A stretch of DNA of 36,121 nucleotides, from IMG/VR virus record IMGVR_UViG_2778261180_000005. One strand, given 5' to 3'. Under the pieces are notes generated by a model that saw nothing but the letters and a program-made list of their open reading frames with translations, did not search any database and was not told the origin of the DNA. This document shows positions 17,092 through 33,884 of this stretch, in pieces. Position numbers and translations under genes: made by a program. The DNA is from a virus. Taxonomy: Duplodnaviria; Heunggongvirae; Uroviricota; Caudoviricetes. The first letter of the stretch is position 1. Every line of letters starts with the position of its first letter.

Positions 17092-20000
17092 TTACCCTAA
17101 TTTAGCTTCAATTGCAGCAAGACGTTCACGAAGAAGTTTATTTTCTTCGCTCATTTCTTGGACCGCTTTAATTAAAAGCGCGTTCACTGCGGAGTTTGAA
17201 ATTGTTAAAATTTCTTCTGGGTTATCAAGAGATCCGACATTAGAAGTGCTAACAGCTTCCGGTAAAATTTCTTGTAAATCCTGTGCGATAATACCAATCT
17301 CATGTGCGATGACTTCTCTGTCAGAAAGAGACTTAACTTTATCGTAGGTTTTAACTTTTAGTTTATTTACCTTATCTACCGCATTTTCTTCGTAGTCTTC
17401 AACGTTAATTTTCAGACGACGGTCGGAACGAATATAAACATCGTTACAGTAAACCGACGCACTAGATGTGAAATCACCATTTGCAGCCCATGAATACCAG
17501 CCGCCTTTGTTCATATGCATCATTACGGTAGCTTGACCACCGCCAGCATGAACACCCATTGCCGCAAGATGATCAACACCCCAATGAGTTGCTTTCCAAA
17601 TTGAATATGCTTGGGTATGTGAATCCTGACAATCTAAGAGAATACCAGCAGGACGGTTGCGCCAGTCATCCCATGCACCACCAGAAACCTCACCACGGAT
17701 AAGAGCGTATTCACCATTATATGGAACACGTTCTCCCGCTTTAATCATTGCACCCTGGAAGTGATGACTAAATGAACCCCCATGATTATTTCGTATATGT
17801 AAAATACCATCATCTGTAGCCCAGATAACAGCCTTTTCCGATTCGCTGTCATCTCTAAACCAGATATGGCGTGCACCAGTTGAGTTTTTGATGGTTATTC
17901 CGGTAGGTCCATGCACGGTCAAAGCACCAGCTACATCAAATAAAACGGTGTTATCTGTTCTACGTTCAGTATAGAAGTGATAACCTTTGGAATCGCCGAT
18001 TTCCATTACTGCCGCGCGTCCAACTTCTGAATTTCCCCAATTGTTGATAGAGAATCGTTCAGAGCTATTATTCATCTGATTTAGGTATAATGTACCGTCA
18101 GTGAATGTTTCGCCAAAGAATCTAGTTTTAATGCTATTGGTTCCGGTGCGTTCAAATTCGGCTAAAAATCCTTTTGAGTCACGAAGACTTAAAACGTTAT
18201 TTCGACCTGTATTGCTTGCCCCCCAATGGACGAGTTCCATATAGTCCATAGATTGACGAGAACCAGATTTAAATAAAAGGTTGTCTTCGAGACGAGTGCT
18301 ACCATCAATTCCCAGGTGCAAACAACGAGCGGTTTCAGTACCACCTAAATATAGTCCACCATCATCAAAATTATAGCTGAATGGTCTGCGATTATTCCAA
18401 CTACCAAAAGAATCTTTTAAATTGGTAGTAAGAATATGGAAGCTAGAACCGTCATTGCGTAACATCAAACCATAGTTACCGCCTTTAACAGCCAAACGAG
18501 CATTTTCAGATAATGCAACTTCGCTATTCATTACAATTTTCTGGCCTTTACCACCAGTAATATGTAATTCACCGTCTTCGATCAAATTTATCGAGTTTTG
18601 ACCGTTATCGTTCCACCAAATAAAATCTTTGGTCGTCAAATCACCAAAACCAAACCAGCCATTACGAACATCTTGACCAGTGCGATAATCCATAAAATTA
18701 AAATGGCTTGCTTCGTTTGGTCCTCGACGAATATCAATACCAGCATTAGAACCGGAACCTAAGCCACCATCGATGGTCAATCTACGAATATGCAAACCGG
18801 TTACAGCCGAAAGCAATAATTGTTGGGTTACATCGGTATATCCAGTAGCAAGACGATAATTTTGGTCATCAACACTTTCGTGCCAGATAGTGGCAGGAGC
18901 AGAACTACGGAAGCGACGCAACATCTTTTTAGCATTTGTCGGTTGTTCGTTCATATGCTCAATGTCGTATTGGCCTTGATGGTTTCCAGCAAAATTTAAC
19001 GTTCCACGGTTGCTAAAGTTATTGAACGATGAAATGTTAAGAGCATCAAAAATTTCATCTGCAACAGGTTTTTCACCACCCAGATATTCAGGAGTATCCA
19101 ACAGGTTTAAAGAAACACCACCGGAAGAAACTTGATATTCTGCTAAAACAAATCCTGTATGTGCACCGTAGTAAGCGTAAAGATCGTAATTATCACCATC
19201 GGTTGGAATAGCGCAAAAATGTTGTTCATAATGCCAAATAGTATAATACGCATTGAATACAACACCTTTCGGGCTATTGTTGCCGCATCGAATCACCAAT
19301 TCGATAATATTGGCTTGTCCATTCATCCCGACGTTATAACCGTTACCACCAACCAAACGGATCTTAGCGGTGCGACCGTGTTGCTGTGGCATTGTCAAAG
19401 TGCCTAGTTTAAACCAACCACCCTCGATCCCAAAATTAAGCGTCTTCTGGAACAGTCGGTCAATTTCTGCTTTCGAATATGCGCCAATTTCAGCCGGAGT
19501 AGGTTTATCGCCTTCATGATACATGCGGTGAGAATATGACAAGTTACCCAATTCATCGTAGCCGTATGTTCTTACCGTATGAACCGGATTAGACCCATAA
19601 GTGAACTCAAAGCCACGAGCATGATTAACACCAGATGGATGCGGAACATGCAAGATCATTGCAATATGACCCGCCAGGTCATTCATGCGGAATGCACCAA
19701 AGTAGTCAAGATTACGCGCACTCGGATCATCAAAATAGTTTGCGGTCTTAGACAACAAATAACCATCAGTATAAGTGTTTACGTGTTTTTTGATGTACTT
19801 GCCATCACTCGATCCGTCGGCTGCATCAATACGGCTTTCTAAGCGTGCCAGTTCAGAATCAGTGTAAGACTTGTTATTGTCAACTTTGCTATGAATTGCT
19901 GAATTTTTGGCTTCAACATCACGGGTTAATGCTGCGACGTTATCCGCTGCCTCTTGCTTATTAGCCGCAATCACACCAGTAAGGTTATTGTAGGTGTCAG

Positions 20001-20613
20001 TTAACTGATTTTCCGCATAGACTTTATTTGCTGCGATAGTGCGGTCAGTTTCTGTCTTAATCAGATCAACTTTGTCATTGATTGCTTTGTCATTACTTGC
20101 GATTGTCGCGTCGGTACGGGATTTAATATCATCAACTTTTTTATTGATGCGGGTGTCCAGTTCCTGAGTTGCTACAGCAGCCGCATTTTTATTAGCGTTG
20201 ATGGTATCCGACAATTCAGCTTTAACACCAGCAAGATCGGAAGCAGCTTTATTTTTATTAGCTTCGATTGTCGCGTCGGTTTCGCGTTTAATTACATCAA
20301 CTTTATTGTTAATTTCTGCATGATTTGCTGCGATAGTAGAATCAGTAGTTTGTTTAATTTCATCTACTTTAGCGTGAATATTGCGGTCATTTACTGCAAT
20401 TGTGCTATCCAATTCTTGTTTGTTAGCATCAACTTTAGATTCTAGTGCCGCGTGAGTTTCAGGAGAAACAGAGATTTGAACTACTTCATGATCTCGGTCT
20501 TTGGTAAAAATAACATGGTCTTTAAGGTTGATTGCCACCTCACCGACCTGTAATTGTTCCGGCGTTGGCTTTTTGCCAGAAACATTAGTTCGTTTAAATT
20601 GGATTGATTGCAT
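17092..20613 (-). CDS. side tail fibre with C-terminal intramolecular chaperone (peptidase S74-like) domain, 1173 aa
   Basis: N-terminus KPTPEQLQVGEVAINLKD; about six ~22-aa repeats (KVDxIKxxTDxTIxAN); C-terminus SDRRLKINVEDYE...GIIAQDLQEILPEAV typical of autocleaving fibre chaperone domains; GAGGTGA SD. Confidence 0.85.
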   Translation of the reverse strand: MQSIQFKRTNVSGKKPTPEQLQVGEVAINLKDHVIFTKDRDHEVVQISVSPETHAALESKVDANKQELDSTIAVNDRNIHAKVDEIKQTTDSTIAANHAEINNKVDVIKRETDATIEANKNKAASDLAGVKAELSDTINANKNAAAVATQELDTRINKKVDDIKSRTDATIASNDKAINDKVDLIKTETDRTIAANKVYAENQLTDTYNNLTGVIAANKQEAADNVAALTRDVEAKNSAIHSKVDNNKSYTDSELARLESRIDAADGSSDGKYIKKHVNTYTDGYLLSKTANYFDDPSARNLDYFGAFRMNDLAGHIAMILHVPHPSGVNHARGFEFTYGSNPVHTVRTYGYDELGNLSYSHRMYHEGDKPTPAEIGAYSKAEIDRLFQKTLNFGIEGGWFKLGTLTMPQQHGRTAKIRLVGGNGYNVGMNGQANIIELVIRCGNNSPKGVVFNAYYTIWHYEQHFCAIPTDGDNYDLYAYYGAHTGFVLAEYQVSSGGVSLNLLDTPEYLGGEKPVADEIFDALNISSFNNFSNRGTLNFAGNHQGQYDIEHMNEQPTNAKKMLRRFRSSAPATIWHESVDDQNYRLATGYTDVTQQLLLSAVTGLHIRRLTIDGGLGSGSNAGIDIRRGPNEASHFNFMDYRTGQDVRNGWFGFGDLTTKDFIWWNDNGQNSINLIEDGELHITGGKGQKIVMNSEVALSENARLAVKGGNYGLMLRNDGSSFHILTTNLKDSFGSWNNRRPFSYNFDDGGLYLGGTETARCLHLGIDGSTRLEDNLLFKSGSRQSMDYMELVHWGASNTGRNNVLSLRDSKGFLAEFERTGTNSIKTRFFGETFTDGTLYLNQMNNSSERFSINNWGNSEVGRAAVMEIGDSKGYHFYTERRTDNTVLFDVAGALTVHGPTGITIKNSTGARHIWFRDDSESEKAVIWATDDGILHIRNNHGGSFSHHFQGAMIKAGERVPYNGEYALIRGEVSGGAWDDWRNRPAGILLDCQDSHTQAYSIWKATHWGVDHLAAMGVHAGGGQATVMMHMNKGGWYSWAANGDFTSSASVYCNDVYIRSDRRLKINVEDYEENAVDKVNKLKVKTYDKVKSLSDREVIAHEIGIIAQDLQEILPEAVSTSNVGSLDNPEEILTISNSAVNALLIKAVQEMSEENKLLRERLAAIEAKLG
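20010..20470 (-). repeat. in-frame tandem coding repeats within the side-fibre gene
   Basis: Recurrent DNA blocks (such as CGATTGTCGCGTCGGT...ATCAACTTT) encoding the KVDxIK..TDxTIxAN repeats; coordinates approximate. Confidence 0.6.
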
Positions 20614-22228: not shown

Positions 22229-22257
22229 AGTTACCCCCTTTATGGAGTATTTACATA

Positions 22258-22285
22258 CAAAAAAGCCCCACCGTTAGGCAGGGCT
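22258..22285 (-). terminator. partial terminator in the 200-nt structured region downstream of the capsid gene
   Basis: AGCCC...GGGCT stem followed by a U-run on the minus strand; further hairpins at 22308..22322 and 22384..22402. Confidence 0.45.
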
Positions 22286-22425
22286 AATTATTATTTTGCT
22301 TTCGGTGGACGTCCCACCTTTTTAGCTGTGGCTTTCGCCGTAACCGTCTGGGATTCTTCTTCCTGAGATGGAATCAGATTTTCTTCCCCCAAATCGGGGG
22401 AAGGTACAGAAGGTTCTACGCTAGT

Positions 22426-24405
22426 TCATTCGGAGATGTGAAGAACTTTCAGAGCTTCCGGCTGGGTTACAACATAGTCCAGATCTACCCAGATACGCGG
22501 AACGATAGCGGACTGTGCACGGTAGGTGGTGTCGTCCATATCCAGTTCCAGACCGCCCCACTCACCGATAGTAATACCGGAGAAGTCACCCAGAACGATG
22601 TGATCTGCCGGGATAACACCAGAAGTAACTACATCGTAACCAGCCAGTTTGCCGTTTTCGATGATATAACCGGAAACACCGTTATCTTTCAGGGTAGATT
22701 CCAGTTCAGCAGCAGTTGCACCGCTCATCGCAAACTTGATCGCCTGAGCAGGAACGCCAGCGTCGGTCAGTGCTGCAATTTCTTTCAGGAAGTCTTTGTA
22801 GCTGAAAGCGGCTTTCTTAGTAACACGGCTTGCATCAACCAGTTGTTTAACCAGACCAGCAGGACCGCGCTCATTGTCTTTGTCAGACAGAATCAGTTGT
22901 TCCAGTTTGATGCGAACAGCCTGGTTGATGTGATCAGTGATCAGGGTAGCGATACCCGGAACGGTTTTAATGCTCTGACGGCTGATCGGGTTGCCACCAG
23001 CAAAAGTCTTAGGAGACAGTTTCACGTTTGCAAATTCAGCTTTGCCTTCCGGTGCAGCACCGTTTTCATCAACGAAGCCGAAAGCGTCAACGCTGGATTT
23101 AGTCATTTTTGGAATAGCGGTCGGAGCAGTCAAGCCACTGTAAACAGTCACACCCAGACGACCCAGAACGGATTCCGGCATCAGCATTTCGATGTAGGAT
23201 TCAGTCAGCAGTTTTTCGTCGGTGATAGCAGTCAGGTCAGCTTTGGTGTTACCAGCAGCAGCAGCACGCATAGCAGCAGCAGGAACGAATACAGAGCCAC
23301 CACGAGCAGCACGACCACGCTGCATAGTTGCAGTAGCAGCCATTGCGGAATATTCAGCTTCATGAGCGCCGAGCACGTCGCCATCTACCAGGGAGCGGAT
23401 TACGTTATTAAGATCGAAAGTTTTTTCCATTTTAGAGTCCTTAATTTGTTGTTCGTTGTTACGTTGAGCAGTAGCGATTTTATTTAGTGCCTTAGTGCGG
23501 AATGCTTCCGGCGTCATGTCTTTAATTGCTAATGCGCGTTTCAATTCTTCGTCATCAATATTTAGTTCGCGTGCAATTTCGCGAATTTCTAATTCGTCTT
23601 CTTCGGAACGTTCAGCCACTTCTTCGATTTTTTCTTCTTCAATCGGAGCGGCTTCACGTTCTTCTTTTACTTCTTCTGCTTCCCGAACAGTTGAACTATC
23701 ATCATCAACACTTTCAGGATGTTCAGCGTCTTTTCCGTCTTCGAGATTTTCATCTTCTTTATTCTCTTCAACTTTCGGTTCTTTATTTTCTTCTACCGGA
23801 GTTTCTTCAACCTGAGCGGGTTCTTGTTCTTCTTTGATTTCTTCGATTTGTTCTTTAGTCATATCGCGTTTAGCCTCCAAATTAACTGTGATAGTATTTA
23901 GAGAGCGATTTAAACCGACCGTATCGTCAGCAGGAACTGTCACAAATGAAATTTCAAAGGGTGCCCACTTAGTAACAATCAATTGTCCTTTAGCGTAATC
24001 GATGTGATACTCTTTAATGTCATAGCCGACCGATATTTTTTCCATCGTACCTTCAATGACTTTATTACGAATATCATTAGCCAAAGTCCCATGCTTAGAG
24101 AATTTAACCAGAGCACGGCCTACGTTATCCGCATCGATTCGAGCGTTACAGACAACACCAATGTGATTATCGAAATTATGATTGAACAGCAACGGAGCGT
24201 TATTATTCAGGCGAGACAGATCAACCGCTTCCGGTGTATGTACCAGAATTTCATCTAATACCACCATTTCTTGATTTTGCTCATCCCAGAATTGGCGCTG
24301 GTAAGGCTGGGTACTGGAGAAAGCAATTTCAAATTCGTATTGATCGTTATGCCCTTCGTTAATAACTCCACCGTAACCGTTAAGATCGCGGCGAAATTTA
24401 AGCAT
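22426..24405 (-). CDS. prohead protease - scaffold - major capsid protein fusion (659 aa)
   Basis: N-terminal HK97-type prohead protease motifs (LLFNHNFDNHIGVV, KISVGYD, EISFVTVPAD); acidic linker; C-terminal HK97-fold capsid-like region; host-like codon usage; AAGGTGA SD. Confidence 0.8.
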   Translation of the reverse strand: MLKFRRDLNGYGGVINEGHNDQYEFEIAFSSTQPYQRQFWDEQNQEMVVLDEILVHTPEAVDLSRLNNNAPLLFNHNFDNHIGVVCNARIDADNVGRALVKFSKHGTLANDIRNKVIEGTMEKISVGYDIKEYHIDYAKGQLIVTKWAPFEISFVTVPADDTVGLNRSLNTITVNLEAKRDMTKEQIEEIKEEQEPAQVEETPVEENKEPKVEENKEDENLEDGKDAEHPESVDDDSSTVREAEEVKEEREAAPIEEEKIEEVAERSEEDELEIREIARELNIDDEELKRALAIKDMTPEAFRTKALNKIATAQRNNEQQIKDSKMEKTFDLNNVIRSLVDGDVLGAHEAEYSAMAATATMQRGRAARGGSVFVPAAAMRAAAAGNTKADLTAITDEKLLTESYIEMLMPESVLGRLGVTVYSGLTAPTAIPKMTKSSVDAFGFVDENGAAPEGKAEFANVKLSPKTFAGGNPISRQSIKTVPGIATLITDHINQAVRIKLEQLILSDKDNERGPAGLVKQLVDASRVTKKAAFSYKDFLKEIAALTDAGVPAQAIKFAMSGATAAELESTLKDNGVSGYIIENGKLAGYDVVTSGVIPADHIVLGDFSGITIGEWGGLELDMDDTTYRAQSAIVPRIWVDLDYVVTQPEALKVLHISE

Positions 24406-24450
24406 TTAATCACCTTTAATTAATTGGGGGCATTGCGCCCCCGTTGGTTA

Positions 24451-32942: not shown

Positions 32943-33884
32943 ATGTTATTTTCCGCTAACTTTTTCACTAACGAAGTAACCAACGCTAAAGCAGTTATCA
33001 AATTTGGCACCGAAGCAAACAAGAAGATTCAGCCGAAAGTTGTTGCTCATGTTTCCTTTGCGCAGCAGAAATCCGCTTTCGCTGGCTTTAAAGCACATCG
33101 TGAAGCACTGATCGCGGCTGGCTTTGGTGTTGACGGTAAACTGCCTAACGGCATTCGTAAAGCAATCGACCGCGTTAAACCTGCTAAAGACGTTGCAGTA
33201 GACCACATCGTTACTTTTACCGTTAAGAACTCTTCTGAACTGTTCCACCTGGTTATTGCTGGTGATACTGCTATCGTTTCCGCTCCTAACATGGATTTTC
33301 AGGATACCGCTGATTGCCAGATCACCTTCGGTCGTCGTAAAGAAGTTACCGGAAAAGCTAAACTGAACTTCACTAAATCCGGCAATCCTTACTTTGCTGT
33401 TTTCTTTAACAGCCACGCTACCGAAAAAGAAGTTGTAGAACTGGTTGCTTATGAAGGTGAAGAGAAAGAACGTATTGAATCTTGCGAAGCATTTCTGGAA
33501 CTGGAAGCACAGGTGAATGCTGTTTCTCCGGTTGTTGAAGATCGCTTTGCTGCACTGGAAGCACAGATCGCAGAACTGAAAGCTGCACTGGAAGAAAAAG
33601 ACCAGATTATCGAAGCACAGAAAGCTGAGATTGAAGAACTGAAAGCTAAAGAAGTTGCTCCGGTAGCAGTAGTTGAAAACGCGGCTGATGAGGCCGCAAA
33701 TGATGAAGTAGAAGTGAAAATCGATGTGATGCGTGATCCGATGGCTGCACTGCAATTACTTCGTTCTTTTAAGGGCAAATCTCATTTTTCTAGTGATGTA
33801 GAAGATGAGGAAGAAGAACAGAAACGCAATGCTGCAATGCTTCATGATGAAATGTACGGTACTAACTTTTCTTACTGCCAATAA
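32943..33884 (+). CDS. hypothetical coiled-coil protein with strongly host-optimised codon usage (313 aa)
   Basis: SD AGGAG; codons dominated by CTG, CGT, GGT, GAA, AAA and CCG, unlike the rest of the element; central coiled coil and acidic C-terminus. Confidence 0.8.
   Translation: MLFSANFFTNEVTNAKAVIKFGTEANKKIQPKVVAHVSFAQQKSAFAGFKAHREALIAAGFGVDGKLPNGIRKAIDRVKPAKDVAVDHIVTFTVKNSSELFHLVIAGDTAIVSAPNMDFQDTADCQITFGRRKEVTGKAKLNFTKSGNPYFAVFFNSHATEKEVVELVAYEGEEKERIESCEAFLELEAQVNAVSPVVEDRFAALEAQIAELKAALEEKDQIIEAQKAEIEELKAKEVAPVAVVENAADEAANDEVEVKIDVMRDPMAALQLLRSFKGKSHFSSDVEDEEEEQKRNAAMLHDEMYGTNFSYCQ

Follow-up and report, generated by a model that had tools for sequence, protein, structure and literature searches.

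An Escherichia coli prophage protease-scaffold-capsid fusion gene with a putative nested start and a candidate leaky-stop extension

A fused head-assembly gene in a lambda-like prophage

We analysed a 36,121-nucleotide (nt) stretch of tailed-phage DNA (IMG/VR record IMGVR_UViG_2778261180_000005, Caudoviricetes), here called the window, and focused on one head-assembly gene and its flanks at positions 22,229 to 24,450. In this region, an open reading frame (ORF) of 659 amino acids (aa) joins a prohead protease, an acidic scaffold-like linker, and a capsid protein of the HK97 family. Coordinates are positions in the window, and the head-gene features listed in Table 1 all lie on the minus strand. 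The gene order is lambda-like: large terminase, head-tail joining protein, and portal are followed by the fusion ORF, two small ORFs, and the major tail protein. The prophage is a lambda-like one of E. coli/Shigella; the fusion gene, its head-assembly gene, stands where lambda has C, Nu3, (D), and E. Comparison across relatives suggests two further features, a nested start at Met182, which would yield scaffold and capsid without the protease, and a leaky TGA stop, past which an open frame may add a short tail to a minority of capsid subunits.

The initial annotation of this DNA, made without database searches, had proposed the three-part layout within one ORF, and matches to Pfam, PHROG 617, and a solved structure bear it out. 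Peptidase_S78 (PF04586) matches aa 40-162 in a profile search (E 5.7e-11, 43.3 bits against a cutoff of 21). The fusion protease is homologous to the HK97 proheadase without reaching equivalog status, as the score for TIGR01543, the HK97 proheadase equivalog, is 36.3 bits and below the cutoff of 59. H76 (in LLFNHN) and S125 (in KISVGY) are invariant in an alignment of four sequences that share 42-92% identity; as the candidate catalytic His and Ser, they may be the equivalents of HK97 gp4 H65 and S114. A PDB sequence search with the protease domain alone returned only chance-level matches to SATB1. In the linker, aa 182-300 contain 49 Asp/Glu and 16 Lys/Arg residues, a net charge of -33. A single-sequence AlphaFold2 model of the fusion protein is poor (pLDDT 36) and places helices only at aa 268-361. 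Phage_capsid (PF05065) matches aa 402-656 (E 4e-25, 89.2 bits against a cutoff of 24.2), and aa 402-653 align with the capsid chain of roseophage R4C (8gta, E 3.1e-24), the sole solved relative. The R4C gene encodes 629 aa, of which the C-terminal 268 aa make up the deposited chain, so the mature shell lacks the N-terminal region. This fits its removal on maturation, which the initial annotation also foresaw for the prophage protein, and from the R4C chain start we infer that its mature N-terminus lies near ...GNTK/ADLT, at about residue 389.

The full-length protein matches PHROG 617 (major head protein, fusion type; E 9.9e-92, aa 23-655 on profile positions 26-621 of 626) and also phrog_4523, described as 'major head and protease protein'. 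NCBIfam NF045541, the model named 'prohead protease/major capsid protein fusion protein', matches at 2e-40 with 139 bits against a cutoff of 525, and the aligned part covers only aa 22-339. Given a score so far below the cutoff, the fusion has the same architecture as NF045541 but belongs to a different lineage. The protease/capsid fusion architecture is already catalogued (PHROG 617/4523, NF045541, and phage genome papers), so it is not new. The same ORF, at 659-670 aa, occurs as 46 distinct coding sequences in independent E. coli/Shigella genomes, IMG/VR contigs, and metagenomes. Because these versions come from independent assemblies, the fusion is not an assembly artefact, and a sequencing or annotation error hiding separate protease and capsid genes, a concern raised at the outset, is not what we find.

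A candidate internal start at the protease-linker boundary

The strongest in-frame pairing of a Shine-Dalgarno sequence (SD) and a start codon in the fusion ORF is found at Met182, with a predicted anti-SD duplex of -9.3 kcal/mol compared with -4.3 kcal/mol at the annotated start. This site coincides exactly with the boundary between protease and linker, and its predicted product of 478 aa would consist of scaffold and capsid. The 60 nt around Met182 fold at -3.2 kcal/mol, whereas windows along the ORF average -10.3 ± 4.4 kcal/mol. Among ~40 close relatives, the DNA at the site hardly varies, in contrast to the codons just upstream, which carry synonymous changes.

The site persists in relatives where the surrounding peptide does not. 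At ~40% identity, the boundary peptide can no longer be aligned, yet AAGGA stands 6-11 nt before a conserved Met followed by Lys-Arg. Environmental relatives with 24-30% identity carry GGAGG or AAGGAG 4-8 nt before an in-frame ATG or GTG, 30-45 residues past the SIVTVPAD motif. An internal SD and start are also found there in the phage R4C gene, and in an E. coli prophage with 38% identity the internal site is a GTG preceded by GGAGGG. Across relatives, the GGAG core is read in all three codon phases, as K-E-A, P-G-G, D-R-S, and other residues, which points to selection on the RNA and not on the protein. We scanned 91 distinct fusion ORFs and found the best in-frame site 5-70 aa after SIVTVPAD in 60 of them, a window that makes up ~12% of the scanned positions; the site in this window is second best in ~20 more. 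The family thus has a conserved in-frame candidate start with a putative ribosome-binding site 3' of the protease domain.

Codon usage changes at the same place. By a list of E. coli optimal codons, the protease domain scores an optimal-codon fraction of 0.52, and the value climbs to 0.75 for the linker and 0.86 for the capsid domain; the other prophage genes range over 0.38-0.62, apart from one exception at 0.79. The rise past the protease domain agrees with a nested gene that would have an internal start. The host-like codon usage ascribed to the whole gene in the initial annotation holds only in part, and the third-position GC content (GC3) of the ORF is 0.37 against ~0.5 in flanking host genes. 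The exception is a 313-aa ORF at 32943..33884 on the plus strand, outside the late operon, whose fraction is the second highest in the window and comparable to that of the capsid domain.

Several observations weigh against an internal start. Low synonymous diversity is not specific to Met182 but runs on through the whole acidic linker, and we therefore dropped the diversity dip as evidence. The 11-nt spacing between GGAGG and the ATG is long for E. coli. SD-like motifs within genes can also serve as pause sites, and ribosome pausing by such motifs inside ORFs has been proposed. The internal GGAGG might accordingly act as a translational pause that gives the protease domain time to fold before the linker appears, and its position at a domain boundary fits this idea. 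A pause would leave unexplained, however, the in-frame ATG or GTG at a start-like spacing (4-11 nt) in nearly all relatives, the conserved N-terminal-like segment that follows (M-K-R... or M-x4-N-A-P-A-G...), and the unusual lack of structure in the region. We consider pausing very unlikely as the sole function of the motif.

The ORF could alternatively produce a single polyprotein, in which every subunit carries and excises its own protease and scaffold and the flanks are purely untranslated RNA that stabilises or processes the mRNA. This was in essence the initial proposal. The ORF is indeed uninterrupted, and the family is annotated as one protein, but neither the family-wide boundary SD and start in varying codon phases nor the step in codon bias is explained by such a scheme, and the conserved SD and ATG at Met182 suggest that a single polyprotein is probably not the whole story. 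We favour instead an internal start: the fusion family quite probably represents a nested gene of the lambda C/Nu3, HSV UL26/UL26.5, or HFTV1 gp17/gp17.5 kind. The conserved start together with the codon-bias step implies, as far as sequence can tell, a main product lacking the protease. In the literature we searched, which covered few subscription journals, no internal start is described for fusions of S78 protease and capsid.

An open frame beyond the TGA stop

All 58 loci compared end the capsid gene with TGA-A, and in all 58 the capsid frame then stays open for 28, 42, 43, 44, or 45 codons up to the same tandem stop. Variants among them include a 48-nt replacement and tails ending in ...KKVGRPPKAK, ...KKQRKTKE, ...KKERKTKAK, and ...KRGRKPKE. 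At least four indel or replacement events change the length between TGA and TAATAA, all by multiples of 3 nt, whereas the next 65 nt contain four indels, all of 1-2 nt (Fisher p = 0.014 versus the extension). A leaky type of stop thus precedes an in-frame ORF that has stayed open in the relatives. The initial annotation had treated this 3' region as simply untranslated, which is probably not correct given the frame open in 58/58 loci and the coding-type indels.

Related capsid genes point in the same direction. In E. coli 39EVA (L175, NZ_CP138416, 452-2700), a 684-aa fusion capsid protein with 38% identity is followed by the same TGA-A block, a 42-codon extension and the terminator, with a recombination junction at about the last capsid codons. 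Relatives with ~40% identity (L041, L076, L077, L085, and L075/78/79/83) have Ala/Lys-rich tails, in frame or otherwise: in some, the tail is fused in frame (...EKGTPAEAKAAKQ*), and in others it lies after a TAA in the -1 frame. In L085, the stop is immediately preceded by a perfect slippery heptamer, A_AAA_AAA, which suggests -1 frameshifting in this relative. By their sequence, these tails look like the same module reached by other routes.

A stop codon of this type is uncommon in the window, where 27 of 32 ORFs end in TAA and only four, including the capsid gene, in TGA. The other three TGA-ended ORFs lie in the non-structural region, and two of them have 34-35 open post-stop codons. We rejected a suppressor tRNA or a change of genetic code, since the window has no tRNA and three other ORFs end normally at TGA.

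UGA reporters in E. coli K-12 show ~2-4% readthrough (PMC10570021). In the prophage, the 10-nt spacer between UGA and the downstream RNA structure is longer than in known readthrough stimulators, a first point against a selected extension peptide. On the assumption, made from genome size, of a shell of ~415 subunits (T=7), UGA readthrough at ~2-4% could plausibly give each capsid a few extended subunits with no stimulator at all.

Other findings also weigh against the extension as a selected peptide. Release factor 2 is more efficient in wild E. coli than in K-12, and readthrough there may be <1%. Substitutions in the extension are spread over the codon positions as 14/20/19, compared with 31/26/99 in the capsid domain, so the peptide is barely constrained; purifying selection on it is not seen, and just the frame, length class, and charge pattern are kept. 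Parts of the extension are more conserved than synonymous sites, and selection at the RNA level could explain much of this. We looked for natural variants in which a sense codon replaces the TGA and found none; the search yielded a single candidate, a 33-aa ORF, and so supports their absence only weakly. The chance that a neutral stretch would acquire no stop is ~0.10 (4.3% of substitutions create a stop, over at least 53 substitution events), so that the open-frame statistics are suggestive and not overwhelming. In a single-sequence test, the 44-codon stretch is not significant: in the window, open runs of at least 31 codons follow the stop of 8 of 32 ORFs, and most of these runs presumably continue into the next gene. 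The case for the extension therefore rests on the comparative data. On balance, we lean towards the extension being a selected and translated feature. The literature searched, with the same limit on subscription journals, reports neither a post-stop extension for the fusion family nor readthrough in a tailed-phage capsid gene.

The post-stop stretch had also been called by one annotator as an independent 33-aa gene starting at a TTG (22392). Such an ORF is in the program-made ORF list, and a 33-aa 'hypothetical protein' exists in nr. We rejected this candidate: it has no SD upstream, its TTG is buried in a hairpin of -14.4 kcal/mol, and three variants have TTA or TCG instead although their frame is still open. 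The 4-11 codons between TGA and TTG are likewise always open, and an independent gene is highly improbable.

RNA structures downstream of the stop

The 197-nt region from the stop to the next gene folds better than 200 of 200 shuffled sequences (z = -4.25). The initial annotation had described ~200 nt with three hairpins; the length and the structured character hold, but there are more than three helices. In both the long and short classes of the extension, structure begins exactly 10 nt past the UGA. Across 27 long-class haplotypes, the first 3' hairpin does not vary. Short-class members have an unrelated 11-base-pair (bp) hairpin with a GAAA loop instead, with one compensatory pair, and the GGUGG/CCACC stem shows a compensatory change from U-A to C-G. 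Among relatives, no pair is broken. RNA-level selection certainly acts on the hairpins. The conserved distance suggests a role for the structure in decoding of the stop; its placement would fit just as well if it shielded the 3' end of the mRNA or belonged to a 3'UTR-derived RNA (from the 3' untranslated region).

One alternative is that everything from the TGA through the terminator works as a non-coding RNA module, either a 3'-end stabiliser or a 3'UTR-derived small RNA, in which the open frame is incidental. The hairpins, an A/U-rich stretch, the terminator with its U-tail, and the fold score agree with such a module, as do the invariant first hairpin, the compensatory pairs, and the equal distribution of substitutions over the three codon positions. 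The arrangement AAUAAUAAUUA, hairpin, and U6 also resembles an Hfq-type 3' module. RNA function alone, however, does not predict indels only in multiples of three, nor a frame that stays open through the 48-nt replacement and three tail endings to an in-frame tandem stop. The region has no Rfam match; in a search of Rfam families that included SECIS, we obtained only sub-threshold noise. We judge a purely non-coding module rather unlikely. An RNA function can coexist with translation of the extension.

The single-polyprotein scheme introduced above draws further support from these flanks, where the hairpins are strongly conserved, include two compensatory pairs, and are followed by a canonical terminator. 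It does not account for the multiples-of-three indels before TAATAA as opposed to 1-2 nt after it, nor for the exclusive use of TGA and the in-frame tails of relatives. With the evidence at the Met182 boundary, we consider it unlikely that the polyprotein is the sole product.

The UGA might instead be decoded as selenocysteine through a SECIS-like hairpin, and the structure 10 nt past the UGA and the G that begins both apical loops are in line with this. E. coli has the selenocysteine machinery, and its SelB requires a hairpin ~11 nt past the UGA that carries a bulged U and has GU in its apical loop. What we find is a 10-nt spacer, loops of GAUUU and GAAA that lack GU, and no bulged U. The distance from UGA to apical loop also differs between the two classes, and again Rfam gives no match. 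We consider selenocysteine insertion extremely improbable. We retain readthrough of the UGA into a short tail as the preferred interpretation of the region.

The terminator mentioned in the initial annotation, where it was called partial, is canonical and conserved, with a 9-bp stem and T6; six of its stem pairs are GC, a GC-rich stem followed by a U-tract as expected for Rho-independent termination. Changes in it among relatives are only one-sided and stem-strengthening. Tail genes lie further downstream on the same strand, which implies some read-through of the terminator or antitermination. Beyond the terminator, the small hairpin that covers the SD of the next gene is kept in all relatives and may restrict translation of this small head-completion gene.

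The hairpin upstream of the gene

The GGGGGC/GCCCCC hairpin upstream of the gene lies exactly where the initial annotation had placed it. No U-tract follows it on the sense strand. It is nearly invariant in 40 relatives, so that covariation is uninformative. The hairpin could mark a boundary for processing, lend the mRNA stability, or dampen initiation at the weak first start. In ETEC1718 (L007, 460-1482), an extra hypothetical ORF of 341 aa lies between the portal and capsid genes, and in some prophage variants this 341-aa insert sits where the conserved 5' hairpin lies.

Table 1 Features of the fusion gene and its flanks (positions in the 36,121-nt window)
Feature	Coordinates	Strand	Details
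5' hairpin GGGGGC-GCAAU-GCCCCC	24426..24442	-	-12.4 kcal/mol; between portal stop (24451) and capsid start
Weak SD of annotated start (AAAGGUGA)	24410..24417	-	anti-SD duplex -4.3 kcal/mol; ATG 24405..24403
Protease-scaffold-capsid fusion ORF	22426..24405	-	659 aa; ATG start; TGA stop (22428..22426)
Peptidase_S78 prohead protease domain	23920..24288	-	aa 40-162; H76 and S125 invariant
Candidate internal start	23860..23878	-	GGAGG 23878..23874; 11-nt spacer; in-frame ATG (Met182) 23862..23860
Scaffold-like linker	23242..23862	-	aa 182-388; acidic core aa 182-300, then Ala-rich helical part
HK97-family capsid domain	22429..23241	-	about aa 389-659
Post-TGA extension (TSVEPSVPSPDLGEENLIPSQEEESQTVTAKATAKKVGRPPKAK)	22294..22425	-	44 codons in capsid frame; acidic first, then basic
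Branched RNA structure	22342..22415	-	begins 10 nt after UGA; -28.6 kcal/mol
8-bp hairpin CUUCCCCC-GAUUU-GGGGGAAG	22403..22383	-	inside branched structure
GGC-GAAA-GCC helix	22339..22330	-	3' region fold
Hairpin GGUGG-GACGU-CCACC	22304..22318	-	within extension; missing from ...KKQRKTKE tail variants
Tandem stop TAATAA closing the extension frame	22288..22293	-	TAATAA in 57/58 loci, TGATAA in L175
Intrinsic terminator, stem AGCCCUGCC/GGUGGGGCU	22258..22285	-	9 bp, 4-nt loop, U6; -15.0 kcal/mol
Small hairpin ACUCC/GGGGU	22233..22248	-	pairs with GGGGG SD of next gene (ATG 22228); -4.6 kcal/mol

Distribution and variants of the prophage

The prophage is carried by 55 of 5,426 complete E. coli genomes, and in strain E275a (NZ_CP035865) it adjoins ydcL and hicAB. 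The fusion protein has ~2,500 close homologues. The nearest isolated phage shows 47% identity to the fusion protein. In a DNA-level search of isolated phages, the sole match was 14%, to Escherichia phage DCP80, and this collection holds no close cultured relative. Among species-representative genomes, a single-protein scan found no relatives and an alignment-based scan gave only three distant matches. The DCP80 record (L041, PQ671644.1) is classified as a 141-kb Straboviridae (T4-like) genome whose first ~10 kb are a siphovirus-type terminase-portal-fusion-capsid module with mostly hypothetical annotations; the assembly may be chimeric.

Some strains (H53, H68) have IS903B and IS1 insertions in or near the capsid gene, and where IS1 splits the gene, PGAP calls a separate 'HK97 family phage prohead protease' and 'phage major capsid protein'. 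Elsewhere in the window, a tail-fibre protein of 1,173 aa (17092..20613, minus strand) has N-terminal repeats of ~20 residues (VD.IK..TD.TI.AN...), and its C-terminal region matches long tail fibre distal subunits.

A proposed model for nested and extended capsid products

We propose a model in which a nested start and a leaky-stop extension operate on one fusion head gene, and we put its probability at roughly 60%. The weak first start, preceded by a hairpin, would produce a minority of full-length protease-scaffold-capsid chains, and the strong, unstructured Met182 start would produce the bulk of the protein as a scaffold-capsid chain of 478 aa, comparable to HK97 gp5 with its delta domain. 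Both chain types would co-assemble via their shared scaffold-capsid part, bringing the protease into the prohead in sub-stoichiometric amounts. The protease would then trim everything upstream of about residue 389 to leave a mature capsid protein of ~271 aa. An internal start would solve the stoichiometry problem by translation, where the initial annotation had invoked mRNA processing or stabilisation to boost capsid protein.

At the other end of the gene, TGA-A is the leakiest stop, and a small percentage of ribosomes may read through it, probably inserting Trp, and continue to the tandem TAATAA. The product would carry a flexible tail of 28-45 residues, acidic and then rich in Lys/Arg, and would form a minor capsid species analogous to T7 10B or Qbeta A1. 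The structure 10 nt past the UGA may tune readthrough, shield the mRNA 3' end, or both, and the terminator after the extension probably raises the amount of capsid mRNA relative to the downstream tail genes. If T7 10B and encapsulins are a guide, the tail would be exposed on the outer surface, where it might serve in surface adhesion or in contacts between capsomers. A stronger version of the model, in which one frame gives rise to three nested proteins of the capsid lineage, namely the full-length chain, the Met182 product, and a readthrough form with a surface tail, readthrough is programmed and tuned by the structure, and relatives reach the tail by fusion or -1 frameshift, is only a tentative suggestion.

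If it holds, the nested start would explain how phages with a fused protease and capsid avoid one protease per subunit, a puzzle that concerns a widespread head-gene family in which the R4C capsid is already solved. Thousands of database entries for a single 'major capsid protein' would then encode nested products. The extension, if real, would offer stop-codon readthrough that makes a minor capsid species in a genetically tractable, E. coli-hosted system, as well as natural variants (in-frame, -1 frame, and UGA) for studying why sub-stoichiometric capsid tails are selected. Readthrough that proved to be programmed would be the first in a capsid gene of a tailed double-stranded DNA (dsDNA) phage, with a stimulatory structure in E. 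coli that is not a SECIS. Where a phage capsid gene is followed by an apparent structured '3' UTR', possible recoding should be examined before the region is labelled untranslated.

Comparison with known systems

Neither the proposed nested start nor the proposed leaky-stop extension is reported in the literature searched, and both would represent novel forms of established strategies. The same three-part single ORF, directly after the portal gene, is found in the fusions of NF045541 ('scaf_prot_MCP2') and PHROG 617/4523, with examples in roseophage R4C, Rhodobacter RcC-cluster phages, and Francisella phage KIRK (Fhv_0017). HK97 gp4 and gp5 likewise comprise an S78-family protease and an HK97-family capsid domain, and the predicted Met182 product resembles gp5 in having an N-terminal assembly domain that is removed by the protease. 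The prophage differs from HK97 in that the protease is fused and not a separate gene, and its linker, at 207 aa, is strongly acidic.

Lambda C/Nu3, HSV-1 UL26/UL26.5, and HFTV1 gp17/gp17.5 have an in-frame internal start past the protease domain, as we propose here. As described for HFTV1, with lambda and HSV-1 cited alongside as the same arrangement, such a start yields an abundant C-terminal product and a rarer full-length protease that is targeted by way of the shared part. In contrast to all three, the shared C-terminal part in the prophage would include the capsid protein itself, and its products are predicted from sequence.

For the extension, the closest parallels are systems that likewise make a minority of extended coat subunits: T7/T3 10A/10B, Lactobacillus phage A2, and Listeria phages A118, A500, and PSA by frameshifting, and Qbeta A1 by UGA readthrough. 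To our knowledge, UGA readthrough of a coat gene is known for the single-stranded RNA phage Qbeta and not for tailed phages. The mechanism in the prophage would differ from the frameshifting systems in being in-frame UGA readthrough in a dsDNA phage, and in place of a folded domain its tail would be a short acidic/basic peptide of low complexity. Extension of coat proteins by recoding is established in T3, T7, A2, A118, A500, and PSA, and among phages with Ig-like extensions, relatives reach the same module in frame or by a change of frame (PMC5009743). The in-frame and -1 tails of the relatives described here would show the same indifference to the route of access as these recoded coat extensions (PMC5009743).

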